DNA of 64,000 bases from Candidatus Poseidonia alphae (GTDB lineage Archaea; Thermoplasmatota; Poseidoniia; Poseidoniales; Poseidoniaceae): NCBI GenBank assembly GCA_002505405.1, contig DAVD01000037.1, forward strand, positions 82,880-146,879, given 5' to 3'. The position numbers and the translations under genes were made by a program. Below the pieces are notes generated by a model. It had not been told where the DNA came from. It worked only from the letters and a program-made list of their open reading frames with translations, and searched no databases. Positions 4,149-59,038 of the stretch are shown here, piece after piece; within the stretch, counting starts at the first letter, position 1; every line of letters starts with the position of its first letter.

Positions 4149-4220
4149 AGTCCCTTAGTGTAGCGGTCCATCATGGAGGATTCTGGTTCCTCCGACCTCG
4201 GTTCAAATCCGAGAGGGACT
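4149..4220 (+). tRNA. tRNA-Gln (anticodon CTG)
   Basis: Hand-folded cloverleaf. Acceptor AGTCCCT/AGGGACT; anticodon stem GAGGA/TCCTC with loop TTCTGGT; T arm CTCGG-TTCAAAT-CCGAG. 72 nt, CCA not encoded. Confidence 0.85.
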
Positions 4221-4330
4221 ATCCGCAAATCTCGCTTCAGTCTCGTACGGCCGCCAAGCATAATTTTTAGGGTATACGAAATACTATAAGTGGGGTACTT
4301 TTAGGGCGGCCTAAACCAGTAGGGCTTAAC

Positions 4331-6442
4331 GTGAAAACACGAAAACTAAAATCAACATTGCTTATCTTCCTCTTTGCCACAGCTTCACTCGCTGGATGTC
4401 TCGGTGGTGAATCAGAAACCCAGACTGAATTAGATGAACTCGTTATCGCTTACAGTATCAAGGATGATTACACGAATGTCGATGAAAATCCTCAACGTCT
4501 CTCAGATTATTTGAGTGAAAAACTCGACATGGATGTTTCGCTTTATCCAATTGATTCAGAGGGTGCTGCTCTCCAAGCCCTTCGCTTTGGAAATGCAGAC
4601 ATCGCCTTCATGGACGGCGGTGCAGCATGGGTTGGTTGGCAACAATATGGCCTCGATGCTCTTGCTGCTGACCAAAAATCTGACGGCAGAACGTACTACA
4701 GCGCTCATGCTGTGGTTCTAAAGGACTCAGATATTGCAGCAGCGCACTTGGATGATGATCCCTCCACCGACCCGTTCTCTCTGATGGCGGGTAAGACTTC
4801 GTGCCATACTGGATGGCTCAAATCGGCAGGTATGCTCTTGCCAATGGGCTTCCTTATCGGAAACGGATATGCCAACGTTATCGGTGATGCCAGCGATGTC
4901 GAATCATTGCGCTCGACCATCACGAATTTCTTCAACGAAGATGCTAGCATACCTGACTCCGGAACTCCATATTACTCCTACAGTGGTGCAGTCAAGTGCC
5001 TTTCCGAAGGTGTCGGTGATGTTGCCTTTGCCAAGGACTCTACCATTGCTTCATACTGTGGGAACGAGGATGCAAGCACGAACGAAGCATGGTGTTTGCC
5101 AGAATCCGATTACATCTTGCTGCCTTCGTACGGAAATGCGCCTTCACACCCGGTGATGTACAACCCTTCAACCAGCGATGCAGCCACAATGACCCTTGTT
5201 CAAGATGCACTTGTGGCCATGAAAGATACGGTAGAAGGGCAATCCATTCTCACGGATGTTCTCAATACGCCAGCAATCTCTCCAACAAATGCGTCACAAC
5301 ACCTTGCCTCTTACGGTAATCTAATCGAAGATGTCCCTGGAATTTCAGCATATTACGACACGAAATTCGCCATTAACGATTCAGTTGAACCAACGATCTC
5401 CAATATCCGGATCGCCTTTGAAATGAAGGACGATTACGAGAACCCCGCGGAGAACCCCCAAGTTTTGGCTGATTTCATCTCCGAACAAACAGGAGTTACT
5501 GTGACGCTTTACCCTGTGACCTCCGAAGGGGCAATTATTGAGGCCCTGCGATTCGGTAATGCTGACATCGCTTTCATGGACGGTGGGGCTGCTTGGGTTG
5601 GATGGAAAGAATATGGCCTAGCAGCAATGGCTGCTGACCTAAAATCCGATGGGCGCACTCATTACGATGCTCATGCTGTTGTCCTCAACGGCTCCGACAT
5701 TGCCAACGCTTACTTAGACGACGATGCTTCGACCGATCCTTTTGCTCTCATGGAAGGAACCACCTCATGTCACACGGGATGGCTCAAATCTGCCGGCATG
5801 CTCCTTCCAATGGGTCATCTGATTTCACAGGGCTATGCTCCTGTTGTGGGGCCCCAAGAGGACATAGAATCCCTCCGCAACACCATCACGTCGTTCTTTA
5901 ACGAGAATGCGAGCATCCCTGAATCTGGAACGCCTTACTACTCCTATTCTGGAGCAGTGAAGTGTTTGACAGAAGGCGTTGGCGATGTTGCCTTTGCAAA
6001 GGATTCCACCGTTGCTTCATATTGCGGTAATGAAGAGGTCAGCGATAACGCAGAATGGTGCCTTCCTGAATCGGAATACATTCTTCTGCCGTCCTACGGT
6101 TCTGCACCATCGCATCCGGTGATGTACAATCCAGAAACACTTGATGTCCAAACTCGCACGGCCATCCTCAACGCTATGCTGGCATTGAACAATGAGATGT
6201 ACGTTCAGGATTATCCAATGCAGGGACAGAATTACACCGGTTGCTACTCAATGGTTTCTCATCAAGTGGATTCAACCTCACCTCAATCTGCATGTGGCGA
6301 CCAAATCCTGGCTAATGTACTCAACACCCCTGGCTTGGTCGAAGTGAATTCTCAGGAACATCTGGGCAGTTACAGCAGCCTTATCGGTGCAGTTCCAGGA
6401 ATCTCGGCCTACTTTGATTCTAAATACGACATTACGGAGTGA
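4331..6442 (+). CDS. Bilobal transferrin-like solute-binding lipoprotein (PhnD/transferrin superfamily)
   Basis: GTG start with lipobox LFATASLAGC. Both lobes contain MDGGAAW, (Y/H)Y.AHAVVL, TSCHTGWLKSAGMLLPMG, YYSYSGAVKCL.EGVGDVAFAKDST and APSHPVMYNP, which match transferrin lobe motifs. Confidence 0.85.
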   Translation: MKTRKLKSTLLIFLFATASLAGCLGGESETQTELDELVIAYSIKDDYTNVDENPQRLSDYLSEKLDMDVSLYPIDSEGAALQALRFGNADIAFMDGGAAWVGWQQYGLDALAADQKSDGRTYYSAHAVVLKDSDIAAAHLDDDPSTDPFSLMAGKTSCHTGWLKSAGMLLPMGFLIGNGYANVIGDASDVESLRSTITNFFNEDASIPDSGTPYYSYSGAVKCLSEGVGDVAFAKDSTIASYCGNEDASTNEAWCLPESDYILLPSYGNAPSHPVMYNPSTSDAATMTLVQDALVAMKDTVEGQSILTDVLNTPAISPTNASQHLASYGNLIEDVPGISAYYDTKFAINDSVEPTISNIRIAFEMKDDYENPAENPQVLADFISEQTGVTVTLYPVTSEGAIIEALRFGNADIAFMDGGAAWVGWKEYGLAAMAADLKSDGRTHYDAHAVVLNGSDIANAYLDDDASTDPFALMEGTTSCHTGWLKSAGMLLPMGHLISQGYAPVVGPQEDIESLRNTITSFFNENASIPESGTPYYSYSGAVKCLTEGVGDVAFAKDSTVASYCGNEEVSDNAEWCLPESEYILLPSYGSAPSHPVMYNPETLDVQTRTAILNAMLALNNEMYVQDYPMQGQNYTGCYSMVSHQVDSTSPQSACGDQILANVLNTPGLVEVNSQEHLGSYSSLIGAVPGISAYFDSKYDITE
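4436..6442 (+). repeat. In-frame tandem duplication forming the two lobes (lobe 1 ~4436-5401, lobe 2 ~5402-6442)
   Basis: Residues 36-357 align with 358-703 at an offset of 322 aa (966 nt). In the ~195-aa core I counted about 36 differences by hand. The nucleotide sequences are also visibly similar (ttcatggacggcggtgcagcatgggttggttgg vs ttcatggacggtggggctgcttgggttggatgg). Confidence 0.85.
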
Positions 6443-6477
6443 TCTTCACAACCCTTTCCTCACCTTAAACCGCTGGC

Positions 6478-6536
6478 GGAGTGATTCAATCACCGCACCC
6501 ATAGAAGGGTCACTCCGTTAGCACCCCGGAGCTAAC
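6478..6536 (+). promoter_or_regulatory. Two adjacent intercistronic stem-loops between the binding-protein and ATPase genes
   Basis: GGAGTGA (6478-6484) pairs with TCACTCC (6510-6516). Immediately after, GTTAGC (6517-6522) pairs with GCTAAC (6531-6536) around an 8-nt loop. Confidence 0.3.
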
Positions 6537-6633
6537 ATGACCGCCACAACCGATTCTAGACTTGGAGATGTTGATGTCGCCATGTCCAACCGCTTGAATA
6601 AGACCTGCTCGCAGGAGTGAATGAGGGGATATT

Positions 6634-7320
6634 ATGAGCGACACAGCCATCCTATCTCTTGACCAACTTTCCATCGGTTATGATGATCCGCTGGTGGAAC
6701 CAATTACACTTGAAGTGAAACCAGGTGAAATTATCGCCATTCTCGGTCCATCAGGCATCGGGAAGACCACATTGATACGCACTGTTGCAGGTCTCGTTCG
6801 GCCCCTTGGGGGCTCTTTTGAATTGAACGTTGAACGCCGAGGAGGTCTTGGATACATTCCTCAGCGTCTTGGTCTCGTTCGGCATGCAACCGTTGCCCAC
6901 AATGTCTCGTTGGGGGCCAGAATGCGCGTGAAGTGGTCACTTGAAATGTTTAAGGAGCGCAAAGAACGCACGTTTGAGGCTCTTCGAACGCTTGGAATTG
7001 AGAACAAAGCCTCTGAACCCGTTCGGCGTCTCTCAGGAGGTCAACAGCGGAGAGTAGCAACTGCGCGAACGCTCGCTCAACGGCCAGAAATAATGCTCGC
7101 TGATGAGTTTCTTGGTGAGTTGGACCAGGCGAACGTTGACATTGTCTTAGGAGCGGTCCTAGATTTAGTCGAGAGTGGAACGGCGGTGATCATGGTCGAA
7201 CACCATGAAGACAACGTCCTAAATTTCGCCACGCGCATTTGGGAAATTAAGGGTCAGCGTTTCTTGGACCTTCCCATCGGGGAGTGGGTCAAGCAAAACT
7301 CAATGGAGGAAGAGGAATGA
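6634..7320 (+). CDS. ABC transporter ATP-binding protein, PhnC-like
   Basis: Walker A GPSGIGKTT, signature LSGGQQRRVA, Walker B IMLADEF. GAGGGG lies 5 nt upstream of the ATG. Confidence 0.9.
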   Translation: MSDTAILSLDQLSIGYDDPLVEPITLEVKPGEIIAILGPSGIGKTTLIRTVAGLVRPLGGSFELNVERRGGLGYIPQRLGLVRHATVAHNVSLGARMRVKWSLEMFKERKERTFEALRTLGIENKASEPVRRLSGGQQRRVATARTLAQRPEIMLADEFLGELDQANVDIVLGAVLDLVESGTAVIMVEHHEDNVLNFATRIWEIKGQRFLDLPIGEWVKQNSMEEEE

Positions 7321-8204
7321 AGTACCGCTTATTTGGTATCCTCTTGTTTCTCCTCTTCTTGGCTTGGCGAACGCTTGATGGACTCGTTGACGGCGATTGG
7401 GGCAGGCTTGAAGGAGGATTGTCTAACCTTGTAGTGTTTTTCAAGGAAAGCATGTGGCCTCCGAATTGGAGTGTTCTTGAGGCCCGTTCCTACCCAGTGT
7501 GTGAAAAAGACATTGAATTCTTTTGCTCTGTGGGCTACTTGGGCATGATGGAGACTCTGAAAATCGCCTTTGTTTCTACAGTTCTAGGGTTCATTGGTGC
7601 AATTTGTCTTTCATCTCTAGCAGCGAGGAATTTGACACCTCTTTCCATTTCAATTCCCATCCGAGTCTTTCTTTCTGCTGTTCGGAGCCTTCCCAGTTTG
7701 ATTTGGGCGATTCTATTTGTGATTGTGATTGGCTTTGGGCCCCTTTCGGGCGTATTGGCGATGACATTCTACACGGTCGGATATCTTGGTAAATTGCAGT
7801 ATGAAGTGTTTGAGGGGATGCCAAGCGACCCCTTGGAAGCAGGTCGGGCCATGGGGCTGAGTCGTCCGAGCATTTTCTTTAACATCGTCATCCCAGAAAA
7901 CGGAAATCATTTGCTCAGTCAACTGATGTTCATGTTCGAGTACAATGTGCGGCACGGTACCGTGATTGGAATTGTTGGTGCTGGTGGTATCGGTTATTAC
8001 ATCAGCACCTATCTCAAATTTCTTCAATACGACAAAGTCTTCGCTTTGTTGATTCTCATCTTCATCGTCGTCGTCTTGATCGACCTGTTCTCGTTGATGG
8101 TTCGTTCCTTTGTCAACGAAGAAGGGGATGTGAGAAAACCAACATGGTTAACCGTTCTCATGAAGGCTAGGAAGCAAAAAGATACTTCCGAGGATGAGGC
8201 CTAA
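7317..8204 (+). CDS. ABC transporter permease, PhnE-like
   Basis: Start refined to MKYRLFGILLF at 7317 (ATGA overlap with the ATPase stop). EAGRAMGLSR...VGAGGIGYY is a PhnE-type hallmark; multiple hydrophobic helices. Confidence 0.85.
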   Translation: MKYRLFGILLFLLFLAWRTLDGLVDGDWGRLEGGLSNLVVFFKESMWPPNWSVLEARSYPVCEKDIEFFCSVGYLGMMETLKIAFVSTVLGFIGAICLSSLAARNLTPLSISIPIRVFLSAVRSLPSLIWAILFVIVIGFGPLSGVLAMTFYTVGYLGKLQYEVFEGMPSDPLEAGRAMGLSRPSIFFNIVIPENGNHLLSQLMFMFEYNVRHGTVIGIVGAGGIGYYISTYLKFLQYDKVFALLILIFIVVVLIDLFSLMVRSFVNEEGDVRKPTWLTVLMKARKQKDTSEDEA

Positions 8205-8420
8205 TCAATCAGCAGCAATATGCAAAGACCCGTCCTTGTAAAACACCTGGATGCGGTCCGATGCCTTCTTGCTCAAGGCTGAGATCGCTTCGTAAATTTC
8301 GTCTTCAGATACTTTGAATGTCTTCGCCGCGTCTTTAGTTGACCACGGTACAATGTGGAATTCACTCTTAGCCAGCCACGTCAATAATTTGACTTCAAAC
8401 TCAGAGAGTTCATCGGACAT
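8205..8420 (-). CDS. Small hypothetical protein (71 aa)
   Basis: Only the MSDELSEFEVKLLTWLAKSEF...SLHIAAD part of track ORF 8205-8834 is free of overlap with gpsA. Acidic, helical-looking. Confidence 0.45.
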   Translation of the reverse strand: MSDELSEFEVKLLTWLAKSEFHIVPWSTKDAAKTFKVSEDEIYEAISALSKKASDRIQVFYKDGSLHIAAD

Positions 8421-8466
8421 ACCACGCTCACGAAGCCTTCCCTCAAAACAGCACCGATGGCTTCCT

Positions 8467-9474
8467 TCAACCAAGTGCAACCATGCGTCTGCAACATTCT
8501 TCAGCGTCAATGTCCCCATCAAGAAGGGTATTGAGCGCTTTCGTGAAGGGGACCTTGAGTCCACTGTCCTCTGCGCGTTCAATAAACATTCGAGTGGCTC
8601 GGACACCTTCTGCAACCATATGCATTTCATCCAGAGCTTGCTCAAGAGTGAGTCCAGTCCCAAGTTTTTCCCCCATGCTGCGGTTTCTTCCATGCGGTGA
8701 AGTGGCGGTGACGTACATGTCTCCAAGTCCTGCTGGTCCAAAAGCAACCTCTGCTCGCGCTCCGAGTTCCGCAAGAAGAAGACAACCTTCCTTGAATCCG
8801 GACATGAATATCGCAGCTTTGAGATTGTCTCCACCGAGATCGCCTACTTGTTTGAGTCCGTCAACAAGTCCGCAAGCAAGGGCGACCACATTTTTGTAGG
8901 CGCCCCATAGTTCCGCTCCGACAGGGTCACTTGCAGGGTGAAGAATGAAACTGGGCGTCCCTAGTGTGCTCGCCAAGCGATTGGCAACAGCGTCATCCTC
9001 ACTCGCAACTAAAGCAGTGGTCATAACGCCTGCTGCTGCTTCTGGAGCAATGGTTGGGCCTGTAAGTACAGCAAGGGGATTCGTTTTTCCAGCTTCTTTG
9101 AGCATTCCATGAATCGCTTGAGAAATAAGTCGTTTCCCAGGTGCAAGACCCTTCGCCAAGTCGAGGAGAACGTGGCGCGGCTGAAGGTGGGGGATGATGT
9201 CTTCCACCACATCAAGAATGACGGATGAGGGTACGGCAAGAACAATGATTTCGCTTCCTTCAAGCGCTTCTGAAAGGTGCATGGTTGCATCCAATCCCTG
9301 AACTGGATGGTCAGGGAGATATTTTGAATTGACTCCATCAAGGGTAATTGACTGATATACCTCTTCTTCAATGGTCCAACCCTTGACCTTGTGGCCTTCC
9401 AAAAGCCACAAACGAGCAATGGCTGTTCCCCAGTTTCCGAGACCCAATACAGAGATGTGTGCCATAGCAATCAT
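8467..9474 (-). CDS. gpsA: NAD(P)H-dependent glycerol-3-phosphate dehydrogenase
   Basis: ISVLGLGNWGTAIA (Rossmann), KNVVALACGLVDG and MVAEGV, with the expected length (335 aa). Confidence 0.85.
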   Translation of the reverse strand: MIAMAHISVLGLGNWGTAIARLWLLEGHKVKGWTIEEEVYQSITLDGVNSKYLPDHPVQGLDATMHLSEALEGSEIIVLAVPSSVILDVVEDIIPHLQPRHVLLDLAKGLAPGKRLISQAIHGMLKEAGKTNPLAVLTGPTIAPEAAAGVMTTALVASEDDAVANRLASTLGTPSFILHPASDPVGAELWGAYKNVVALACGLVDGLKQVGDLGGDNLKAAIFMSGFKEGCLLLAELGARAEVAFGPAGLGDMYVTATSPHGRNRSMGEKLGTGLTLEQALDEMHMVAEGVRATRMFIERAEDSGLKVPFTKALNTLLDGDIDAEECCRRMVALG

Positions 9475-25108: not shown

Positions 25109-25180
25109 GTCAGGTTTTGCGGTTGACTCTATTTGAAGGAAAAGAGGAAAAGCAATTGGTCGGCAACGGTTGGAGCGAAC

Positions 25181-25780
25181 ATGGCTCGCTCTGTACCTGG
25201 CATTATCCTTGCAGCAGGGGCAAGTTCCCGACTCGGCGAACCGAAATTATTGGTTAACGTTGGAGGTACTCCATTGGTCCGGTGGGCATATGAGAACCTG
25301 AAGACGGCTGGCTGCGAACCCATCATTGTGGTTACGCGGGCTGAGTTATCTGTTGATGTGCTCTTGGCGGTCCCCGATGCGATTGTGAGCATCAACCCTC
25401 ACCCCGAAGCGGGACGCACCGGTAGCCTACAGAACGGTATTTCTTCGCTTCATTCCGAACTGGGAAGGTTGCCTCGGAAGGTGGTTATGGCGCCCGTTGA
25501 CCGCCCCGGCTGGAATGCAAGTTTAGTGAAGGCCTTGACGGGCCATGACGAGTCGGTGTGCCCAATCCATCAAGGAAGAAAGGGCCACCCAGTGGTTCTT
25601 AATGGCGATGACCTTGAGCGCATATTGTCTGTTTCCAGCGCTACGTCATTGCGAGACATCGTTTCGTTCAAGGAAGTAACGGTCCATGGACCATGGCTCC
25701 ATCTGAACATTGATACGCCAGAATCACTTAGCAACTTGCAAGAAGATGCGGCAGAACTGCACGCCTATTTTTTGCGATGA
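25181..25780 (+). CDS. mocA: MobA-like NTP transferase (molybdenum cofactor cytidylyltransferase-like)
   Basis: ATG at 25181 (the track start at 25133 is TTG). GIILAAGASSRLGEPKLL is the MobA/MocA signature. Confidence 0.75.
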   Translation: MARSVPGIILAAGASSRLGEPKLLVNVGGTPLVRWAYENLKTAGCEPIIVVTRAELSVDVLLAVPDAIVSINPHPEAGRTGSLQNGISSLHSELGRLPRKVVMAPVDRPGWNASLVKALTGHDESVCPIHQGRKGHPVVLNGDDLERILSVSSATSLRDIVSFKEVTVHGPWLHLNIDTPESLSNLQEDAAELHAYFLR

Positions 25781-25814
25781 CAAGGGATATGAGGGCAAGC
25801 CGAGAGGGTTGTGC

Positions 25815-26687
25815 ATGACGGCTCGTGTACTCCAATGGGCCTTGAGCCGATTGAATGCACAACACAAGGTTGTACTTGCAACGGTGTTGAATACTTCAGG
25901 TAGCGTTCCGGGAAAAACGGGTGCTCGTCTAGCGATGACCGCTCCTGATTTGAGTTGGGAAGGAACCGTTGGGGGGGCTGGCTTGGAACTAAAGGTCCTC
26001 AATCGTTGCAAAATCTTGCTCGAGCAGTCGACAATACCCGTCGCAGAAGTGGTGACCTACGGCCTGAATAAAGGGGCGAAGGGCTATGAAGTGCAACCCC
26101 TTGATTCGTTATGCGGTGGGCAAGTCACCCTCTCGCTTGAAGTGATGATTCCTATGCCCCACGTATTCCTCATGGGCGGCGGTCACTGCGGCCAAGCGAT
26201 TGCAACACTGCTTGACCAAGTTGGCTGGTCGTACTCCGTACACGATACACGGCCTGAATTTGCTTCTAGCGAATTGTATCCTTCCGCAGTGGCCCTCTCT
26301 TCCAAGGACATTGAGGCGCTTCTTTCCAATGAATCTCTCAAGTCCATGAACCGATTTTCAGACGTCTTGCTCCTCGGGCACGATTGGAGTGAAGACCAAG
26401 AACGGCTTCTTGGTCTGTTGGGTTTGTTCAATCAAGATGGCGTGGCATTGGATGGTTCCACTGCCCCGCGTGTTGGGGTGATTGGTAGCCGGTCAAAATG
26501 GCAGGCTTTTCGTGCTGAATGTGAAGGTCGTGGTTTGCCCAGTACCCTATTGGACCAGGTGATCTGTCCCATTGGATTGAACATTGGTGCGGAATCACCT
26601 GAAGAGATTGCTGTAGCAGTGGTCGCACAAATCATGTCTGCCTTCAAGAGAAAAGATCCCACTGAGCCAACGTGGCGTCAAGATTGA
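25815..26687 (+). CDS. xdhC: XdhC/CoxI-family Mo-hydroxylase maturation factor
   Basis: ATG at 25815. VLATVLNTSGSVPGKTGARLAM (XdhC_CoxI N-domain) and a C-terminal Rossmann-like LMGGGHCGQAIA. Confidence 0.8.
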   Translation: MTARVLQWALSRLNAQHKVVLATVLNTSGSVPGKTGARLAMTAPDLSWEGTVGGAGLELKVLNRCKILLEQSTIPVAEVVTYGLNKGAKGYEVQPLDSLCGGQVTLSLEVMIPMPHVFLMGGGHCGQAIATLLDQVGWSYSVHDTRPEFASSELYPSAVALSSKDIEALLSNESLKSMNRFSDVLLLGHDWSEDQERLLGLLGLFNQDGVALDGSTAPRVGVIGSRSKWQAFRAECEGRGLPSTLLDQVICPIGLNIGAESPEEIAVAVVAQIMSAFKRKDPTEPTWRQD

Positions 26688-27274: not shown

Positions 27275-31369
<4,095 letters not shown>

Positions 31370-35323: not shown

Positions 35324-35926
35324 ATGGTTGGCAAAGAACACATCACAATGACTCCTCCTGCAACCAGCGAACGTTGGTCGGGTGTTGTTAACGGACGGCC
35401 GGTCGAAGTTCTTGCACCCTCGAACGCAGTACTGCTTGATGTTTTGAGAGATAAAGTCGGCACCTTGGGTGTGAAACGTGGATGCGATCTTGGCACCTGT
35501 GGATGCTGTACTGTCATGATTGACGGCGTTCCAAAATTGTCTTGTTTAACACTTGCTGGCCAAGTAAAAAACAGTGAAATTCTGACCGTCGAAGGCCTAT
35601 CAGAAGGCGCACACCTCACTCCAATTCAGACCTGCTTTGCAACACATGGAGGCTCTCAGTGTGGATTTTGCACGCCAGGTTTCATGATTGCTTCTCAAGC
35701 ATTGCTGAATGTTAATGACAACCCGTCTCGGGATGAAATCGCCGAAGCGATTGAAGGAAACCTATGCCGATGTACCGGATACCAACAAATTATTGATTCC
35801 ATCGAGGCGGCAGCGGTTCTCCATCGTGGCGAAGGAGAAGCGCCCTCTCCAGCCAGTGACCCTCACCCGGACCCACATCCATCAGGGCCCGAAGACCCAA
35901 CGATGCCTCCAGGGCACGCGAAGTGA
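35324..35926 (+). CDS. Mo-hydroxylase small subunit, [2Fe-2S]-binding
   Basis: CDLGTCGCCTV, GGSQCGFCTPGFM, NLCRCTGYQQI. The C-terminal Pro/His/Asp-rich tail (DPHPDPHPSGPEDP) is additional. Confidence 0.9.
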   Translation: MVGKEHITMTPPATSERWSGVVNGRPVEVLAPSNAVLLDVLRDKVGTLGVKRGCDLGTCGCCTVMIDGVPKLSCLTLAGQVKNSEILTVEGLSEGAHLTPIQTCFATHGGSQCGFCTPGFMIASQALLNVNDNPSRDEIAEAIEGNLCRCTGYQQIIDSIEAAAVLHRGEGEAPSPASDPHPDPHPSGPEDPTMPPGHAK

Positions 35927-38733
35927 TTGTTATGGGAAGCTATCGTCAACAACCTGGCTCTGGCAAAGGTAGCCAGCGAAAAGATGGCAAGCGCGTCGCA
36001 GGAAAGCAGGTTTTCCCACCTCCCGGCTCCGGTGGCTCCGACCCCGAGATGCGTCCACGCGACTTGGACTTCATTCCCGAGACTGTTGGCGGACGCGAGC
36101 CAAAACCAGCAGGCGATCACATACACGACCGGGACCGGACCGGTACTGCCGTTGGAAAGCCCATGGCGCTGGTTGACTCGAATGCAAAGGTCACCGGTCA
36201 GGCATGGTACGGTGACGATGTTCGCCTTCAAGGTGAGGCCATTGGAAAAATTCTACGTTCGCCTCACCACTATGCGAGAATCAAGTCCATTGACACCACT
36301 CGAGTTGAAGCCCTCCCCGGCGTTCTTGCTGTTGCTACCGGAGAAGATGCTCCAAACCGATTTGGCGTCCTCCCCGTCACAAAAGACGAGCATGCTATGG
36401 CGGTTGACAAGGTTCGCCACGTCGGTGATTTGGTGGCCTGTGTGGCTGCTGTTGACGAAGCTACCGCCATTGAGGCCCTTTCTTTATTTGACATTGAATG
36501 GGAACTTCTCGAACCGGTGTTTGACCCAAAGAAAGGTCTAGAGGACCACGATGAACCGATTCACTGGCGGGGCAAGTATCACCTCGCACGAACCAACGTT
36601 CAGAAAAGAGTGTTCCAAGAATTCGGTGACCGTTCCTTGGTCAAATCCCCTCATGCTGCCTCGCACGGCTCATGGACCATGGCAGGTGTCCATCATGGAT
36701 TTACTGAACCTCACGCTGTTGTGGCTCATTGGGACCCAAACGGTCGTTTGCAACTGTACACTCCCCAGCAAGTCCCCCACTACACTCATCGAGCCCTTTC
36801 AACGGTTCTCGATGTCCCCATGCATCAAATCAACGTCGTGAGAACCTTTGTCGGCGGCGGTTTTGGAGGGAAGTCCGATCCCTTCCCTCACGAAATGTGC
36901 GCTGCGATCCTGGCTCGTAAGGCGGGCGTTCCAATTCGAATTACCTTTGACCGTGAAGAGGTTTATTGGATTAACAGAGGCCGCCATCCGTCTCATATCG
37001 ATGTGAAAATGACGGCTGACACGGAAGGACGAATTTCCGGCTTTGACATTGACGCTCTTATTGACGGCGGTGGCTTTGCTTCCTTCGGCCACGTCACCTC
37101 TTACTACAACGGCGTGCTTGCGACTGCTCCGTACGAATTGGGCTCCTTCCATTACACAGGTGCTCGCGTTTGGACCAACAAACCAGCATCTGGAGCAATG
37201 CGGGGCCACGGAGCCGTGAACACCCGCTGCGCTGTAGAAGTTGGACTGGATGAAATGGCTGAGCAAATGGCTGTTGACCCCATCGACCTCAGGTTAGCCA
37301 ACCTGCTTCCTCCGCACAGTCGGACCATCAGTGGATTCCGCATCACCTCAAACGGTATGCGAGAAGCACTAACACGCGTCAGAGAAGGTTCGGATTGGGA
37401 CAATAAATTCCGACAGCTTCCGCTCGGTAAGGGAATCGGAATTGGTTGCGGTTTCTTCATCTCTGGTTCGGGACTCCCCATCCATTGGGACCCAAAGAAT
37501 TTCCCTCATGCTACCGTCCACATTCAAGTCGATATGGATGGAGGCGTTACCGTTCACACCGGTGCAGCCGATATCGGTCAGGGATCAACAACAGCAATCG
37601 CCCAAGTTGTGGCCGAAGTTCTCGCACTTCCTGTGGAAATGATCCACGTGCGAAGCCACGAAAGCGATACGAGTCCGGTTGATTTGGGTTCATACTCCAG
37701 TCGCGTCACCTTCATGAATGCGAACGCAGCCATTCGTGCTGCTATCGGCATTCGTGACCAATTGCTCAAGGCAGCATGGGAAATGCTCGGATACCACCCC
37801 AATGTATTGGTTCTCAATGACCGAAGAATCTACTACAAACACGACCCTGCAGTCGGCGTGTCGTATTTGCAAGCCTTGCACAAGGCACAGGAGGATACAG
37901 GCGCACTCATCGCTCGAGGGGCGTACCGTTCACCGCCAATGGGTGGCGTTCACAAAGGAGCAGCAGCGGGGCTGGCTCCAGCCTATTCGTTTTCAGCCTA
38001 CGTTGCAGAAGTTGACGTTGACGTTGAAACCGGTAAGGTTTCTTGCACCAATGTTTGGGCCGCTCATGATTGTGGAAAAGCATTGAATCCGCTTGCCGTA
38101 CGAGGACAAATTATTGGTTCCTGCCATATGGGATTGGGCCAAGTTCTCTCTGAGAAGATGGTTTACGGACGAACTGGACACCTTCAAAATGCAAATTTGT
38201 TGGATTACAAGATTCCTTCGGTCCATGAAATGCCTCATGTAGAACCCATTATCGTTGAATCCAGCGACCCCGAGGGGCCGTTTGGTGCAAAGGAAGCCGG
38301 CGAAGGACCTCTTCTACCGATTCTGCCAGCGGTTGTTAATGCAGTATACGATGCAACAGGTATCCGGATGCGAGACCTTCCACTCACTCCCGATGTTGTC
38401 TACAAAGGGATTGAGAAGCATCTGAAAAAGCACGACATCGATGACCCGTTGGACCTCATACCCCCCACGCTCACCCACGGCCCCTTGCAGGAGCAACTCA
38501 TAGAACGTGCAAAAGAACACGAAGTCCGTGACCGTCTGCGTCAACGCAGTGAGGACACTTCTGCCTACGTGAACGGAGTTTTGTTTGGTTTTGACCCAAA
38601 CCGCCCTCTCAGTGAACAAGTTGAAGGATGGAGGGAGGCAGATGAACCGCTTCCTGAACAACTTGCTGAACTCGGATTTGCCGGTCGTGCTTGGCTCAAA
38701 AAAGAGCAACGACACATGGAGGATGATGCTTGA
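35923..38733 (+). CDS. Xanthine dehydrogenase/aldehyde oxidase-family molybdopterin-binding large subunit
   Basis: a/b-hammerhead region (GQAWYGDDV...), VGGGFGGKSD, GAMRGHGAVN, GADIGQGSTT, FGAKEAGEG. Alternative ATG at 35932. Gly/Pro-rich N-terminal ~85 aa and a ~100-aa C-terminal extension. Confidence 0.9.
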   Translation: MIVMGSYRQQPGSGKGSQRKDGKRVAGKQVFPPPGSGGSDPEMRPRDLDFIPETVGGREPKPAGDHIHDRDRTGTAVGKPMALVDSNAKVTGQAWYGDDVRLQGEAIGKILRSPHHYARIKSIDTTRVEALPGVLAVATGEDAPNRFGVLPVTKDEHAMAVDKVRHVGDLVACVAAVDEATAIEALSLFDIEWELLEPVFDPKKGLEDHDEPIHWRGKYHLARTNVQKRVFQEFGDRSLVKSPHAASHGSWTMAGVHHGFTEPHAVVAHWDPNGRLQLYTPQQVPHYTHRALSTVLDVPMHQINVVRTFVGGGFGGKSDPFPHEMCAAILARKAGVPIRITFDREEVYWINRGRHPSHIDVKMTADTEGRISGFDIDALIDGGGFASFGHVTSYYNGVLATAPYELGSFHYTGARVWTNKPASGAMRGHGAVNTRCAVEVGLDEMAEQMAVDPIDLRLANLLPPHSRTISGFRITSNGMREALTRVREGSDWDNKFRQLPLGKGIGIGCGFFISGSGLPIHWDPKNFPHATVHIQVDMDGGVTVHTGAADIGQGSTTAIAQVVAEVLALPVEMIHVRSHESDTSPVDLGSYSSRVTFMNANAAIRAAIGIRDQLLKAAWEMLGYHPNVLVLNDRRIYYKHDPAVGVSYLQALHKAQEDTGALIARGAYRSPPMGGVHKGAAAGLAPAYSFSAYVAEVDVDVETGKVSCTNVWAAHDCGKALNPLAVRGQIIGSCHMGLGQVLSEKMVYGRTGHLQNANLLDYKIPSVHEMPHVEPIIVESSDPEGPFGAKEAGEGPLLPILPAVVNAVYDATGIRMRDLPLTPDVVYKGIEKHLKKHDIDDPLDLIPPTLTHGPLQEQLIERAKEHEVRDRLRQRSEDTSAYVNGVLFGFDPNRPLSEQVEGWREADEPLPEQLAELGFAGRAWLKKEQRHMEDDA

Positions 38734-39710
38734 TGTTGATGCCTCCGTTTGAACTTCATCACCCCGAAACCGTGGAGGAAGCCTGCGCCCTTGCGGCCGC
38801 TCTGATGGAACAAGGGCACGCCTTCGATTGGGTCGCTGGAGGGACGGACGTCTTGCCCAATTACAAATGGCGCATTAATCCGAAGCCCCACGTGATTTCC
38901 CTCGCGAGCATCCAGGATGCGTTTGCACTCTCTCCGTCCGAAATTGGATGCATGGTCTCTCTGGACACCTTGGTGGCTTCAGAGCATGCCCACCCACTGC
39001 TGCGACAAGCTGCTGCAAAAGTTGCCTCGTCATTGATTAGAAAAAGTGCAACAGTTGGTGGAAACCTTTGCCTTGACACCCGATGTTTCTGGTACAACCA
39101 GTCCGAGGATTGGCGCCGTTCAATCGATTGGTGTCATAAAGCAGATTGCGGCACCGGAGCAGATTGCAGAGTTATACCGAATCAGAACACGTTGTGCGTA
39201 GCGACCTATCAAGGCGACCTTGCTCCTAATTTCATGGTCCTCAACGCCTCGGTTCTGATCGTCGGTCCTAACGGTGAGCGAACGGTTGATGTTGCTTCTT
39301 TTTACCAACTGGATGGGATGAAGAAAAACGTCCTTGAAGAAGGAGAGTTTTTACTCAAAGTGATGCTTCCAAAGGACGCCTCCAAGCGAGAAGGCTGTTA
39401 TCAAAAACTACGTGTGAGGGAATCATGGGATTTCCCAGAGGCCGGTATTGCTGCTTCATGGATTCCAGGCAAGGCCGACACGCTTCAAATCGCAAGCACT
39501 GCGCTCGAGTCAATTCCCAAAGAACATTCAGAACAAATTTCGCAACATCTTGAAGAAAACGATGGTCTTATCGATGTGAAAACAATGGCCACCAGTATCC
39601 AAAAATCGGTGAAGCCTGTTAACAACACCGCCCTGCCTCCTCGATACCGCCGCTCAATGGTCAAAACCCTTACGAAACGGGCCTTAAAGGGCATCATGAA
39701 GGAGGACTGA
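38730..39710 (+). CDS. Mo-hydroxylase medium subunit, FAD-binding
   Basis: PPFELHHPETVEEA...WVAGGTDVLPN...ATVGGNL. ATGA-type overlap with the large-subunit stop. Confidence 0.85.
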   Translation: MMLMPPFELHHPETVEEACALAAALMEQGHAFDWVAGGTDVLPNYKWRINPKPHVISLASIQDAFALSPSEIGCMVSLDTLVASEHAHPLLRQAAAKVASSLIRKSATVGGNLCLDTRCFWYNQSEDWRRSIDWCHKADCGTGADCRVIPNQNTLCVATYQGDLAPNFMVLNASVLIVGPNGERTVDVASFYQLDGMKKNVLEEGEFLLKVMLPKDASKREGCYQKLRVRESWDFPEAGIAASWIPGKADTLQIASTALESIPKEHSEQISQHLEENDGLIDVKTMATSIQKSVKPVNNTALPPRYRRSMVKTLTKRALKGIMKED

Positions 39711-54249: not shown

Positions 54250-55368
54250 ATGTGGTGGATTGGGCTCCAAGGAAGCATGGGACAAGACGCACCTGCGGTT
54301 CGCATGACTTATGGAGGATACTTGCAACTCGATTCTCTTCTCGACCTCCAATCCGGTCCGGAAGGATATACTCCTGCACCATCAAACGATGAACTCCATT
54401 TTATCGTCGTCCATCAAACCTTTGAGCTGTGGTTCAAACAGATTTTGCGAGAGTTGAAGGAAGCAAGAGACCTCATGACATCAGAGCGTGTCCAAGAGGC
54501 TACAGTGCCCGTTATCGTCCATCATCTTGAAAGAGTTTCAGAAATATTCAGATTGCTTGCAAACCAGTGGAAAGTCATGGAAACACTCACTCCTCAAGAC
54601 TTCCTCGCATTCAGGGACCGCCTTGGTACTTCTTCAGGATTTGAATCATGGCAGATGAGGGAAATGGAAGTGCTGCTCGGACTTGAAAACGAGCAACGAA
54701 TGGGCGGCATGGACCCTCTTGCTCACATGGAAAAACTTGCTGGAGAAGGTAAAGTATCACCTTCTGCCCTCGCAGATTTCCACAACACGCATTCTCTTCC
54801 TTCGCTCAATGATGCTTTGATGTCCTGGCTCGGAAGAACGCCAATACATGGCTCCTCTCCGGATGGAAATGACGATACTGACGTGGTTCTTGATTATGTA
54901 AACAAGCATCTTGACTCCATGTCGGAACATGGAGAATCGGTCATCAAGCACATGATCTCGATCGGACACGGTGATGAAGCAACGATCCGCCCTAGGATTG
55001 AGGCTGGAGTTCATGGCGCTCGCTCTTTCCTCATCGGAGAAGAGGGTGTCATTCGTTCTCGAGCAGGTTTGTTGTTTATTGAATCTTATCGGGACCTACC
55101 TTTGCTATCGTGGCCTCGTAAACTCATTGACAGTTTCGTAGAACTTGAAGAATCCATGCTTCTCTTTAGAACCCACCACGCACGAATGGTAGAGCGAATG
55201 ATTGGGCGAAGGATGGGGACTGGTGGTTCAAGCGGTGTAGATTACCTGGACGCTACGACCAAATATCGTATCTTTGTTGACCTCTGGGCTGTCAGGACCA
55301 TGCTCGTTAAACGCGACGCACTTCCAAGTTTAGAGCATGCAGAATTTTACGGATTCTCATCCTCTTGA
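54250..55368 (+). CDS. kynA: Tryptophan 2,3-dioxygenase
   Basis: LTYGGYLQLDSLLDLQ, DELHFIVVHQTFELWFKQIL, FRDRLGTSSGFES, GTGGSSGVDYL. Start is ambiguous (54250, 54277 or 54304). Confidence 0.85.
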   Translation: MWWIGLQGSMGQDAPAVRMTYGGYLQLDSLLDLQSGPEGYTPAPSNDELHFIVVHQTFELWFKQILRELKEARDLMTSERVQEATVPVIVHHLERVSEIFRLLANQWKVMETLTPQDFLAFRDRLGTSSGFESWQMREMEVLLGLENEQRMGGMDPLAHMEKLAGEGKVSPSALADFHNTHSLPSLNDALMSWLGRTPIHGSSPDGNDDTDVVLDYVNKHLDSMSEHGESVIKHMISIGHGDEATIRPRIEAGVHGARSFLIGEEGVIRSRAGLLFIESYRDLPLLSWPRKLIDSFVELEESMLLFRTHHARMVERMIGRRMGTGGSSGVDYLDATTKYRIFVDLWAVRTMLVKRDALPSLEHAEFYGFSSS

Positions 55369-56729: not shown

Positions 56730-56762
56730 TTGTTCAAAAGGGGTCTGCTACCACACCCAACC

Positions 56763-57839
56763 ATGGAACTGCCTTGGTGGCGTCGCCCGTCCACCCTGCC
56801 GTTGATGTTGTTCATCATGGCGCTCCTCATTATTGTGGTAGGGGGAAGCATACGCATCAATGATGCTGGCGAATCCTGTCCAGAATGGCCAACCTGCTTT
56901 GGCTCATGGCATTTTGATATTTCTGAAGCAGAGCAATCGGCCTATTGGGATGCGAATCCAGATCAAATTGATTCCCGTGGCGAAGACCATCGTTATACGA
57001 CCTTCCAAATCTTTGTGGAATGGTTCCATCGTTTGCTGGTTGGAATTATTGCAATCCCGATCATACTCAATGCATTCCTTGCAAAAAAGCGAGTCGCAGA
57101 GTACGGTGAATCGGTTCACAAAGTCTCTTGGTTTTCGCTGGTATTGTTAGCAGTACAGGCTACTGCGGGCTATGTTACCGTTCGGTTTGATAATGCAGAT
57201 TGGACCGTTGCCCTGCATCTTTCGCTTGCAAGCATCTTTGCCGCTGGATTGCTCTGGCAGTTCATGTCGATGAAAATCACTGAAGGTGCATCTTGGAACT
57301 TCTTGAAATCACCAAAAACATATACGGAGAAGCACTTCAAACGGATGAGTACAATGGCGGGAGCAGTGGGTGTTCTTCTTGTACTCGGCGCCTGGGTTTC
57401 TTCTTCTGCGGGAGGAAACTACAATCAAAGTTGCTCGGTTGGTTTACCTAACGGATGGCCGAAATGCCAAGGCTCATTCCTTCCCTCACTGAATGAACCC
57501 GGCATCTTCATCCAAATGATTCACCGCACAGGAGCCGTCGTAGTTGGTTTAATTCTCATTTTGGGCGTTTCAAATCTCCGTGTTTCGGGCCAGGGACTCG
57601 CTGGAGCCAATGATCTAACTCGGTTTGGAGAAATCACTGCCGGCATATGGATGCTGAATGTCATGGTCGGTGGTTCTTACATCGTTTTCGCCAAAATTGG
57701 TGACTTTCCTGAATGGCTCTCATTGCTGCACCTGGTGGTCGGAGTTGCCGCCTTCCTCTCCGCCATGTTGGCCGTATTTGCATTCCGCTTCGCACATTCA
57801 ACGGTTCATGACCATGAAATTGGAGTTGAACAGGAATGA
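56763..57839 (+). CDS. ctaA: Heme A synthase (COX15/CtaA)
   Basis: ATG at 56763 (the track start is TTG). GGSIRINDAGESCPEWPTCFGSW, conserved His-containing helices (WFHRLL, MIHRTGA). Confidence 0.85.
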   Translation: MELPWWRRPSTLPLMLFIMALLIIVVGGSIRINDAGESCPEWPTCFGSWHFDISEAEQSAYWDANPDQIDSRGEDHRYTTFQIFVEWFHRLLVGIIAIPIILNAFLAKKRVAEYGESVHKVSWFSLVLLAVQATAGYVTVRFDNADWTVALHLSLASIFAAGLLWQFMSMKITEGASWNFLKSPKTYTEKHFKRMSTMAGAVGVLLVLGAWVSSSAGGNYNQSCSVGLPNGWPKCQGSFLPSLNEPGIFIQMIHRTGAVVVGLILILGVSNLRVSGQGLAGANDLTRFGEITAGIWMLNVMVGGSYIVFAKIGDFPEWLSLLHLVVGVAAFLSAMLAVFAFRFAHSTVHDHEIGVEQE

Positions 57840-58855
57840 CGGGCGAGGAAGAAGTCGGACGAGAACCCACCCCTCATCCTGGCATGCTCAAGGTCATGAT
57901 ACAACTCATGAAACTCCGAGTGATTGTGCTCTTGCAGGTCACTGCAATTTGCGCAATATTGGTCCATGACGCTCTTGCTCGCTATGATTTGATCTTGTCA
58001 GAACGAACGTGGGCAGATACGATCATCGCTTGCATTGTCACTGTCGTTGGAGGGACGTTATCAGCAGGCGGTTCAAATTCGATTAACATGTGGTACGATG
58101 CGGACATTGACCCGCACATGCGGCGAACTCAAAACCGCCCGATTCCTCAAGGGCATACAACGCCACGTTTTGCTCTCATTTTTGGAACCTCCATTGCAAT
58201 ACTCGGCTCAAGTATCTTCTTCATCCTGAGTTGGAAAGCTGCGTTTTGGTCGTTTTTCTCCGTCTTGTTTTATGTTTTCATTTACTCCATTTGGCTTAAG
58301 CGAAGAACACCACAAAACATCGTCATTGGAGGGATCGCAGGTGCAACACCTCCACTCATTGGCTGGGCAGCCGCAGCGGGAGACTCCATCTCCAGCCTCA
58401 ATCCCTTCGATTTGGGTTCGCCCATTCCATGGATGCTGTTTTTCCTTATCTTCCTGTGGACACCACCTCATTTTTGGGCTCTGGCTTTGTATCGCTCAGG
58501 TGAATATGGAAAGGTCAACATTCCGATGTTGAACGAAGTTAAAGGGGCAGAACATACCCTTCTCCAATCAAAAATATACTGCCTTTTGCTGTTGGCTTTA
58601 GGGGCGGTGCCACTGTTCTGGCCGGAATCGGGTTTGCCTCTCTTGTGGGCATTTGTCTCTGTAGGCCTTACCTTGTGGTATGGGAAGTCGGTCTGGGACA
58701 TCGACCCTGCTGAACCCTTTGATGAAAACGGACGAATGCCCAAAGCGGCAAAATCCTTCTTCCGCAGCTTGTTTTATCTGGGCTGGATGTTCCTCAGTTT
58801 GGTCTTGATTTGTCTCATTCCGCCTTCGTGGTTGGGTTTCCTGGGGCCTTTGTGA
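57836..58855 (+). CDS. ctaB: Protoheme IX farnesyltransferase (heme O synthase)
   Basis: UbiA-family motifs NMWYDADIDPHMRRTQNRP and FLWTPPHFWALAL. ATGA overlap with ctaA. Confidence 0.9.
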   Translation: MTGEEEVGREPTPHPGMLKVMIQLMKLRVIVLLQVTAICAILVHDALARYDLILSERTWADTIIACIVTVVGGTLSAGGSNSINMWYDADIDPHMRRTQNRPIPQGHTTPRFALIFGTSIAILGSSIFFILSWKAAFWSFFSVLFYVFIYSIWLKRRTPQNIVIGGIAGATPPLIGWAAAAGDSISSLNPFDLGSPIPWMLFFLIFLWTPPHFWALALYRSGEYGKVNIPMLNEVKGAEHTLLQSKIYCLLLLALGAVPLFWPESGLPLLWAFVSVGLTLWYGKSVWDIDPAEPFDENGRMPKAAKSFFRSLFYLGWMFLSLVLICLIPPSWLGFLGPL

Positions 58856-59022: not shown

Positions 59023-59038
59023 AATGATGTACATCATT
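59023..59038. repeat. Perfect 16-nt palindrome AATGATGTACATCATT
   Basis: Read directly from the sequence. It begins 4 nt after the tRNA-Ser CCA (59017-59019) and overlaps the stop codon (59034-59036, minus strand) of the surface-protein gene. Confidence 0.9.

Follow-up and report, generated by a model that had tools for sequence, protein, structure and literature searches.

The stretch of DNA considered here, hereafter the window, is a 64-kb segment (64,000 nucleotides) of contig DAVD01000037.1 of Candidatus Poseidonia alphae. Near one end it holds a three-gene operon for a substrate-binding protein (SBP), an ATP-binding cassette (ABC) ATPase and a PhnE-type permease (Table 1). Judged from sequence, this operon is likely to be an iron-repressed, binding-protein-dependent ABC importer of ferric iron, in which the capture protein would belong to the transferrin family and would not bind phosphonate. 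A lipoprotein gene followed by ATPase and permease genes had been predicted earlier from the letters of the sequence (hereafter the original prediction), and all three open reading frames (ORFs) were recovered at the coordinates given in Table 1, with the lipobox LAGC at residues 20-23. The prediction had also placed the DNA in an archaeon, in agreement with the closest loci, 91-93% identical, which belong to Poseidoniaceae/Poseidonia metagenome-assembled genomes (MAGs) of Marine Group II (MGII).

The N-terminus of the SBP, MKTRKLKSTLLIFLFATASLAGC, has a basic n-region and a hydrophobic core, followed by the lipobox with Cys23; residues A21, G22 and C23 do not vary across 26 homologues. The permease and ATPase genes overlap by 37 nt.

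Table 1. Features of the operon and its promoter (positions in the window; aa, amino acids)
Feature	Positions	Strand	Details
Operator copy A, TTTAGGGTATACGAAA	4266-4281	.	hybrid TTTAGG/CGAAA palindrome, abuts the 5' side of the TATA-like element
Putative TATA-like element, TACTATAAGT	4282-4291	+	~40 nt upstream of the start codon; inferred from aligned upstream regions
Operator copy B, TTTAGGGCGGCCTAAA	4300-4315	.	perfect 16-bp palindrome between TATA-like element and start codon; DtxR/IdeR-box half-sites
SBP gene, 703-aa two-lobed transferrin-family lipoprotein	4331-6442	+	GTG start; ORF call
Signal peptide and lipobox L20-A21-G22-C23 (LAGC), predicted lipid anchor	4331-4399	+	read from sequence
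Lobe 1, aa ~36-353	4436-5389	+	candidate Fe ligands D95, Y123, Y217, H273
Lobe 1, anion site and Cys			anion site T160, K164, A166-G167; Cys pair C158/C223, plus C243/C255
Lobe 2, aa 354-703	5390-6439	+	candidate Fe ligands D417, Y445, Y539, H595
Lobe 2, anion site and Cys			anion site T482, K486; Cys pair C480/C545, plus C565/C577
Lobe-2-specific insertion, ~35 aa (aa ~623-658), with C638 and C655	6197-6304	+	gap in the lobe 1/lobe 2 BLASTP alignment
ABC ATPase, 228 aa	6634-7320	+	Walker A GPSGIGKT, signature LSGGQ, Walker B IMLADE
PhnE-type ABC permease, 306 aa	7284-8204	+	EAA loop LEAGRAMGLSRPSIFFNIVIP; PF00528

The binding protein and its translocator

At the level of sequence, the SBP is a true, ligand-complete, two-lobed transferrin homologue. 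BLASTP aligns its two lobes at 62% identity (E 9e-161), and every transferrin-like string quoted in the original prediction is found in both: FMDGG at residues 93 and 415, TYYSAH at 121 and its counterpart THYDAH at 443, SCHTGWLKSAG at 157 and 479, YSYSGAVKCL at 215 and 537, and APSHPV at 270 and 592. On the Pfam transferrin model PF00405 (gathering cut-off 20.3 bits), lobe 1 scores 74.6 bits, lobe 2 78.3 and the whole protein 146.8. When each lobe was compared by phmmer with all PDB sequences, the 60 matches listed were without exception lactoferrins, transferrins, ovotransferrins or melanotransferrins, the best E-values, to lactoferrins, being 1.8e-30 for lobe 1 and 3.3e-30 for lobe 2. E. 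coli K-12 PhnD, a genuine phosphonate-binding protein, aligns with the window protein at a BLASTP E-value of 0.002, with 25% identity over 75 residues, and Pfam gave no match in the SBP at E <= 1 to SBP_bac_6, SBP_bac_8 or SBP_bac_11, the families of FbpA/FutA type.

Scoring the lobes separately against PF00405 and the phosphonate-binding family PF12974, as the original prediction had proposed, showed that both lobes pass PF00405 and that PF12974 (cut-off 27) scores equally well, with 80.6 bits for lobe 1 and 68.4 for lobe 2. We considered this double match as evidence for an evolutionary intermediate and dropped it, since vertebrate transferrins also match PF12974 (35.1 bits for lemur lactoferrin); it is the relative scores that carry the information (Table 2).

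The candidate iron ligands fall in homologous positions. A HMMER alignment to human lactoferrin pairs D95 with Asp60, Y123 (the second Tyr of TYY) with Tyr92, T160 and K164 with Thr117 and Arg121, and Y217 with Tyr192, while in the hmmalign alignment H273 and H595 share a column with the lactoferrin His ligand. With 175 lobes aligned on one profile, the two window lobes read D/Y/T/K/Y/H in columns where lemur lactoferrin and pig, lizard and fish transferrins have D/Y/T/R(K)/Y/H, which bears out the complete Asp-Tyr-Tyr-His set claimed for both lobes. The Arg-to-Lys exchange pointed out at the anion site is real but no anomaly, because Lys is common there in genuine eukaryotic lobes. In both lobes HTGWLKSAG keeps the spacing of lactoferrin HTGLRRTAG, and SCHTGWLKSAG, which matches transferrin SCHTGLGRSAG, stands in place of the Ser/Thr-rich phosphonate loop of PhnD (DPNSTSGF in E. 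coli, TSxTGSSGF in PhnD-like proteins). Of the 241 lobes in the 120 closest homologue clusters, 239 retain the six-residue signature, as do 116 of 120 more divergent homologues with a single lobe. The transferrin-type Cys pair (SCHTG...KCL), which we take to be the equivalent of the Cys118-Cys194 disulfide of human transferrin, is present in all 361 archaeal lobes examined and in nearly all eukaryotic ones examined, and in none of the PhnD-type proteins aligned with them.

A first AlphaFold2 model, built on a shallow alignment of 26 close homologues, was unusable (mean pLDDT, the predicted local distance difference test score, 47.7). The model retained used a 112-sequence alignment that included eukaryotic transferrins and reached a mean pLDDT of 87.0, with 415 residues at 90 or above and values of 90-96 for the ten-residue blocks that contain the candidate ligands. 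Its 50 best Foldseek matches in the PDB were all transferrin-family structures (E 2.7e-31 to 1.3e-24); a difference in how the lobes are oriented to each other kept the global template-modelling scores down to 0.27-0.35. By homology, the candidate ligands would converge on one pocket per lobe. The insertion of lobe 2 has no counterpart in lobe 1 and is predicted to form a beta-hairpin (strands 622-630 and 633-640). A Cys-containing unit resembling it occurs as three repeats in the third lobe of P0026, a longer relative described below.

Models trained on phosphonate-binding proteins perform poorly on the SBP. On TIGR03431 (cut-off 261.1) the whole protein reaches 68.6 bits and the lobes 34.9 and 36.6, and on TIGR01098 (cut-off 112.05) the whole protein reaches 99.7. 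As the original prediction expected, annotation nevertheless points to phosphonate: the JGI name is 'ABC-type phosphate/phosphonate transport system substrate-binding protein', the NCBI name 'PhnD/SsuA/transferrin family', and 'the transport of phosphonates' is listed among the core traits of MGII (Tully 2019). Labels in the family are inconsistent: JGI calls the single-lobe archaeal proteins P0496, P0510 and P0519 'melanoma-associated antigen p97', that is, melanotransferrin, and the NCBI name of P0276, an ATPase from Poseidoniaceae with 50% identity to the window ATPase, is 'metal ABC transporter ATP-binding protein', the SBPs themselves being called phosphonate-binding.

The translocator is of the PhnC/PhnE kind, as predicted. 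The permease scores 224.5 bits on TIGR01097, the NCBIfam PhnE equivalog model (cut-off 216.7), and the best NCBIfam model for the ATPase is PhnC, albeit at 126.6 bits and below the cut-off of 266.1; the ATPase is 33% identical to E. coli PhnC. Counts given out of 80 loci, here and in the next section, refer to the best 80 of 393 loci found in a scan of species-representative genomes, which come from MGIIa, MGIIb, Marine Group III (MGIII) and other Thermoplasmatota. Among them, the SBP gene is accompanied by the ATPase gene in 74 and by the permease gene in 69, most of the remainder ending at a contig edge.

Promoter operator and linked regulators

Alignment of the upstream regions of divergent loci brings out two 16-bp palindromes, TTTAGG-N4-CCTAAA, on either side of an A/T-rich 'TATA(T/A)A' block that every aligned locus has, the second ending about 15 nt before the start codon. 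Copies A and B are the sole matches to this palindrome in the window, and copy A lies at the position of the upstream copy of the MGII and MGIII loci. The exact palindrome occurs in 69 of the 80 loci, nearly always directly 5' of the SBP gene; elsewhere in the 5-kb flanks it was found only twice, before the ATPase gene in L034 and L056.

The half-sites, TTAGG/CCTAA, are those of the DtxR/IdeR box. In the IdeR box, with the consensus TTAGGTTAGSCTAACCTAA, one CCTAA repeat is contacted by each repressor subunit (PMC10317159), and L088 carries, at the position of copy B, the sequence TTAGGTTAGCCTAAC, identical to the first 15 nt of that consensus. From this comparison, the spacing of the archaeal palindrome would be that of alternate repeats in the IdeR box. 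To judge from sequence, the placement of the operator fits a block on transcription initiation, the palindromes flanking the TATA-like element.

Some relatives also carry a regulator gene beside the operon. In nine MGII/MGIII loci a divergent gene for a 219-aa protein of DtxR/IdeR type adjoins the SBP gene, and the palindromes lie in the common intergenic region. This protein has the three-domain IdeR architecture, and when aligned to the structures of M. tuberculosis IdeR and of DtxR it keeps Met10, Cys102, Glu105 and His106, the primary iron-sensing site of these regulators; in the same alignment, Cys102 is replaced by Glu in the manganese sensors MntR and DR2539. In three Thermoplasmatota assemblies, a DtxR-family gene (PF01325 plus PF02742) is found directly upstream, on the same strand, of a single-lobe SBP gene. 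The promoters of these loci have the same two-palindrome layout, with a TTTCG..CGAAA variant and hybrids such as TTTCGAGGCCCCTAAA. Their shorter regulators have Cys, Glu and His at the positions of Cys102, Glu105 and His106, within a motif, HDAACxMEH, that resembles HDEACRWEH of DtxR/IdeR.

The spacer between the SBP and ATPase genes (6443-6633) is unusually long, at 190 nt, and contains a short inverted repeat, GTGATTCAATCAC, at about 6481-6493; it is just upstream of the ATPase gene that L034 and L056 have their third operator palindrome. The SBP and the translocator may be differentially expressed.

Distribution, lobe number and origin of the family

Relatives of the SBP form more than 700 clusters at 90% identity. 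The best 120 are 72-99% identical to it, plus a three-lobe form at 55%, the named ones being from MAGs of Poseidoniales or Euryarchaeota. Only 372 related clusters came out of an exhaustive search through 1.84 billion representatives. Named relatives fall into four groups: single-lobe archaeal proteins (Poseidoniaceae, Poseidoniales, Thermoplasmatota), archaeal proteins of two lobes together with one of three (P0026), eukaryotic transferrins, and PhnD-type proteins, for instance one from Nitrosopumilus. The nearest eukaryotic transferrins are those of the unicellular holozoans Chromosphaera, Creolimax, Sphaeroforma, Corallochytrium, Amoebidium, Ichthyophonus and Abeoforma and of the green alga Bryopsis. 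No bacterial member was found among the named relatives. Two loci with bacterial labels, L057 (Yoonia) and L074 (a Deltaproteobacteria single-cell assembly), were rejected as such: their SBPs are 62-67% identical to that of the window and they share the MGII-like order SBP, ATPase, permease and 71-aa ORF (described below); archaeal DNA that was mis-binned, or is a contaminant, is the probable explanation.

Close relatives differ in their number of lobes. P0026, of 1156 aa, has three lobes with the full ligand set in each, and in L014, L016, L018 and L019 (~4850-5950) a single-lobe SBP occupies the same operon, next to an ATPase 75-89% identical to that of the window. Because these single-lobe proteins resemble lobe 1 and yet end with the C-terminal residues of lobe 2 or a close variant of them (FDSKYDITE in L014), the comparison suggests that lobes are gained or lost by recombination between repeats. 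The differing lobe numbers (one, two or three) also mean that each lobe is probably an autonomous capture module. Since identity between the two window lobes is 62%, as against only about 30% with any eukaryotic lobe, and since close relatives have one or three lobes, bilobality is, as far as sequence comparison can tell, a recent and independent archaeal duplication, convergent with that of animal transferrins.

L034 has, between the gene for its ligand-complete SBP and the ATPase gene, another paralogue of two lobes (7345-9441). Its first lobe is partly degenerate (K to H, Y to F, H to D) and its second is devoid of ligand residues; given its position, it presumably shares the translocator, and it would bind something else or nothing. 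Similar degenerate paralogues form the separate clusters P0122, P0123, P0127, P0130 and P0131.

The nearest relatives on the PhnD side, the Nitrosopumilus-type proteins P0253, P0244 and P0261, have a single lobe, no Cys, the TSxTGSSGF loop and Gly in place of Lys/Arg. At the transferrin ligand columns they read D/Y/T/-/Y/H, and they reach at most 22 bits on PF00405. In a sample of 80 metagenomic loci of P0253 (L089-L168), the order SBP, ATPase and PhnE is that of the window, and the permease is 42-52% identical to the window's. A palindrome, TTAG-N6-CTAA (for example TTAGCTTATCCTAA), follows directly on the TTTAAATA TATA box in 72 of 76 of these loci, against a background of 10 matches in 603 kb. 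In L133 (operon 5900-8706), the upstream neighbours encode a CbtA-type metal transporter subunit and two small winged helix-turn-helix regulators, and no phosphorus genes were found upstream of the P0253-type operon there. Because of its ligand columns, its operator and these neighbours, the thaumarchaeal 'phosphonate' transporter may also be metal-regulated, possibly by iron.

Table 2. Per-lobe scores (bits) on the transferrin and phosphonate-binding models
Proteins	PF00405	PF12974
Lemur lactoferrin	~427	~18
Ichthyosporean transferrins	~108-113	~46-47
Window lobes	75-78	68-81
Other archaeal single-lobe forms	44-91	60-112
P0244	22	171
Nitrosopumilus P0253	none	151

On the evidence of these scores, the archaeal family is intermediate between PhnD and transferrin in sequence space. 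The original prediction saw a candidate evolutionary intermediate in the two-lobed protein. The part that stands is the position of the family between PhnD and transferrin in profile space, with the ABC partners kept; the two-lobed form itself, a recent archaeal duplication by the comparison above, is not the intermediate, and the single-lobe archaeal forms are the relevant comparison.

The phylogeny that the original prediction had recommended was built from lobes by neighbour-joining on Kimura distances, rooted on E. coli PhnD, and was informative in part. PhnD-type proteins separate from all transferrin-like lobes with 77% bootstrap support and the eukaryotic lobes form one clade with 69%, but archaeal monophyly reaches only 37% and the deep branching order is poorly supported. 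A grouping of eukaryotes with MGII received 1%, which argues against a recent transfer from eukaryotes to MGII. We do not claim that the eukaryotic transferrins arose from within archaeal diversity; on these sequences, the direction of descent is only moderately resolved.

The question arises as to whether the archaeal genes could instead derive from a eukaryotic transferrin, acquired by horizontal transfer and later recruited to PhnCE, so that the family would be a derived side-branch. The weak support for archaeal monophyly and branching order leaves room for this, the family is limited to Thermoplasmatota among named prokaryotic matches, transferrin-bearing marine eukaryotes share the habitat, and the common Cys pair and SCHTG..SAG motif can be read as eukaryotic characters. 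Several observations go the other way. The eukaryotic clade contains no archaeal lobe; archaeal lobes score 68-112 bits on PF12974, well above the eukaryotic values of Table 2; they have 4-8 Cys each as against 7-16 in the profile-aligned eukaryotic lobes; the G+C content of the SBP gene equals that of the rest of the window; and the ancestral order of SBP, ATPase and permease genes is kept, with a permease related to that of the Nitrosopumilus PhnD-type operons and the same type of operator. We therefore regard a eukaryotic origin as unlikely. A choanoflagellate study places transferrin in the holozoan ancestor (PMC11429873).

A wider reading can be put forward tentatively. The D/Y/Y/H-bearing branch of the PhnD superfamily in planktonic archaea, made up of the Cys-containing proteins of MGII, MGIII and other Thermoplasmatota and the Cys-free Nitrosopumilus type, and at present annotated for phosphonate transport, might as a whole serve DtxR/IdeR-controlled ferric uptake and at the same time be the prokaryotic stem group of the eukaryotic (holozoan and algal) transferrins; taken jointly, these two propositions seem to us possible but, on balance, somewhat doubtful. 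If both were true, the transferrin iron site and its carbonate dependence would have arisen in archaeal ABC binding proteins before eukaryotes came to possess them.

Substrate and relation to known systems

The import of Fe3+ under iron repression is the best explanation of the operon because it accounts together for DtxR/IdeR-type regulation, context and the transferrin-type site. In the mechanism that we propose, the SBP would be exported and lipid-anchored through Cys23 on the outer face of the single archaeal membrane, facing seawater. Each lobe would close on one Fe3+ bound by Asp, two Tyr and His, with a synergistic oxyanion, most likely carbonate, held as in transferrin by Thr and Lys and by the N-terminal end of the next helix. 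A loaded lobe would then dock on the dimer of the PhnE-type permease, and the PhnC-like ATPase would drive release and translocation; extra lobes would provide more capture capacity per transporter. Under iron sufficiency, a repressor of DtxR/IdeR type, whose gene would lie elsewhere in the genome, would bind the two TTTAGG-N4-CCTAAA palindromes and switch the operon off. The original prediction had already named ferric iron as the substrate; the operator and the DtxR/IdeR genes linked to it in relatives now point the same way, although metal binding, the nature of the anion, docking and iron repression are still matters of inference.

Several points weigh against this reading. The nearest PhnD-type proteins, those of Nitrosopumilus, also have D/Y/T/-/Y/H, so the D/Y/Y/H set alone is no proof of iron binding and is less diagnostic than the original prediction assumed. 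PF12974 recognizes each lobe as well as PF00405 does, and the eukaryotic transferrins in the alignment may bias the structural model toward a transferrin fold. We know of no characterised PhnE/PhnC-type translocator that imports a metal. No DtxR homologue was found in the window, where DtxR, PhoU and other regulators were looked for among the ORFs with no result. From sequence alone, the operators of iron- and manganese-responsive DtxR-family members are indistinguishable, and in Thermoplasmatota the co-directional regulators have a short, MntR-like length of 140-147 aa and Glu at the Met10 position. The metatranscriptome literature examined yielded no evidence of expression of the operon.

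These last regulators bring in a first alternative, namely that manganese or another hard cation is imported under the control of a DtxR/MntR-family sensor. The short regulators could be manganese sensors because of their MntR-like size and their Glu at the Met10/Asp8 position, and their best PDB matches include the Deinococcus manganese sensor (8pvt) and MntR. Transferrin sites, moreover, can hold Mn3+, Al3+, Ti4+ and other ions, and the PDB titles among the Foldseek matches show complexes with Ti, Yb, Bi, Cr, Al, Cu and Ce. Yet even the short regulators have Cys at the Cys102 position of DtxR, and those linked to the MGII and MGIII operons combine the three-domain IdeR architecture with the full Met10/Cys102/Glu105/His106 site. 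Asp/Tyr/Tyr/His with carbonate is the classic Fe3+ site, whereas Mn2+-binding proteins are generally known to have His/Asp/Glu sites and to belong to a different SBP cluster. We consider this alternative distinctly improbable.

That the operon is a PhnCDE-type importer of phosphonate, phosphite or phosphate, similar to transferrin through common ancestry only, is very improbable: the permease passes the PhnE cut-off, the ATPase has PhnC as its best model, PF12974 recognizes both lobes, database names and Tully 2019 treat the operon in this way, and the Tyr residues and helix N-terminus of transferrins are generally known to be capable of binding phosphate-type anions, but the SBP fails both NCBIfam phosphonate-binding models, has the transferrin anion motif in place of the phosphonate loop, is only marginally similar to E. 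coli PhnD and stands behind a conserved operator which, like the linked regulators, is of the metal-responsive DtxR/IdeR type, and no genes for carbon-phosphorus (C-P) lyase, phosphonatase or phosphite dehydrogenase were found among the approximately 50 window ORFs scanned.

The proposed ferric importer can be compared with six known or related systems. Vertebrate transferrins (PF00405) have homologous lobes (E ~1e-30, identical at about 28% of profile columns), agree with the SBP in the Asp/Tyr/Tyr/His and Thr/basic/Ala-Gly columns, share the Cys pair and the presence of two lobes, and are the best structural matches. They differ in being soluble or glycosylphosphatidylinositol-anchored and taken up by receptor-mediated endocytosis, whereas the archaeal SBP is a lipoprotein with an ABC translocator; they have 11-16 Cys per lobe against 4-6 in the window lobes, score about 427 bits per lobe on PF00405 (lemur lactoferrin) against about 75, and stem from a separate duplication.

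The closest non-archaeal relatives are the transferrins of holozoans and green algae (Ichthyosporea, Corallochytrium, Chromosphaera, Bryopsis and the Dunaliella TTf), which are 33-39% identical to lobe 1, mostly have Lys at the anion position and vary in lobe number, down to a single-lobe, membrane-anchored form in Abeoforma (P0176). These are eukaryotic secretory proteins with more Cys and no ABC partner; compared with the window lobes, their scores are higher for PF00405, at about 110 bits per lobe, and lower for PF12974, at about 46. The Dunaliella transferrins are iron-regulated surface proteins (PMC10372677).

E. coli PhnCDE shares the SBP superfamily, the set of SBP, PhnC-like ATPase and PhnE-type permease, an equivalent of Tyr95 and an anion site at a helix N-terminus. 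PhnD, however, is 18-19% identical over profile columns, has a Ser/Thr-rich phosphonate loop, lacks the Asp and the Cys pair, and its C-terminal half, which would hold the second Tyr and the His, does not align; in the K-12 genome, phnCDE lies beside C-P lyase genes, which the window operon, behind its DtxR-type operator, does not have. The Nitrosopumilus-type PhnD-like proteins are nearer (the nearest of PF12974 type, about 29% identical), with the same layout and type of operator.

FbpA/FutA/SfuA with FbpBC would do the same job as that proposed here, an extracytoplasmic SBP passing Fe3+ to an ABC importer. FbpA-type proteins are class II SBPs, iron-repressed, that bind naked Fe3+ through Tyr, His and acidic ligands with an oxyanion. 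They are analogues only, belonging to the SBP_bac_6/8 families and working with an FbpB-type permease, while the window SBP is a transferrin homologue with a PhnE-type permease; FutABC is described in PMC7676907.

The phytotransferrin ISIP2a is, in the account of McQuaid 2018 given in PMC7676907, a diatom surface protein that captures Fe3+ in a carbonate-dependent manner and is proposed to share with transferrin an ancestry among phosphonate-binding periplasmic proteins. Like it, the window SBP would capture Fe3+ at the cell surface of a marine planktonic organism. ISIP2a, however, belongs to eukaryotes and is endocytosed, and it is much more distant, since the 150 best relatives that the exhaustive search listed do not include it.

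Generic labels ('PhnD/SsuA/transferrin family') and PF00405 matches for such proteins are already in the databases. Our literature search found no description of archaeal transferrin-like SBPs, of their control by a DtxR-type regulator or of a role in iron uptake for the MGII 'phosphonate transporter', although the trees of McQuaid 2018 may include such sequences. In the MGII genomics literature searched, iron is unmentioned or mentioned only for iron-sulfur proteins, and the operon is a concrete candidate for an MGII iron uptake system. If it imports iron, the MGII core trait 'phosphonate transport' is wrong, and surveys of PhnD-like genes would over-count phosphonate uptake by the archaeal iron transporters, possibly including those of ammonia-oxidising archaea. 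To our knowledge, it would be the first case of a true transferrin homologue serving as the binding protein of an ABC importer. It would also provide an expressible prokaryotic system in which the descent of transferrin and phytotransferrin from phosphonate-binding proteins can be tested, and would open carbonate-dependent iron capture, hence sensitivity to ocean acidification, to study in archaea. The natural series of one-, two- and three-lobe proteins offers a route to asking what multiple lobes are for.

Some features of the surroundings deserve mention. A tRNA-Gln gene (4149-4221) lies just upstream of the operon. Downstream, an ORF of 71 aa (MSDELSEFEVKLLTWLAK..., 8205-8420, minus strand) converges on the permease gene and is kept at the same position in at least 53 MGIIa/MGIIb loci, with 45-99% identity. 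It has no Pfam match; we dropped it as a candidate regulator for that reason and because its conservation may only mirror MGII gene order. It could just be a companion of the neighbouring glycerol-3-phosphate dehydrogenase-like gene (8467-9474).

Farther away, two very large ORFs on the minus strand, of 1364 aa (27275-31369) and 994 aa (59034-62018), have no Pfam match at E <= 1e-6 and may encode surface proteins; the second adjoins an ORF (62162-63241) with a weak match, below the Pfam cut-off, to the Lamin Tail Domain. A molybdoenzyme cluster of xanthine-dehydrogenase/CO-dehydrogenase type (35324-39710) comprises a 2Fe-2S subunit, a 936-aa molybdenum-cofactor subunit and a flavin adenine dinucleotide subunit, and XdhC-like and MobA-like genes lie some 9-10 kb upstream of it, at 25133-26687. 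Other haem-related genes of the window encode a tryptophan 2,3-dioxygenase (54250-55368) and members of the CtaA/UbiA families (56730-58855).

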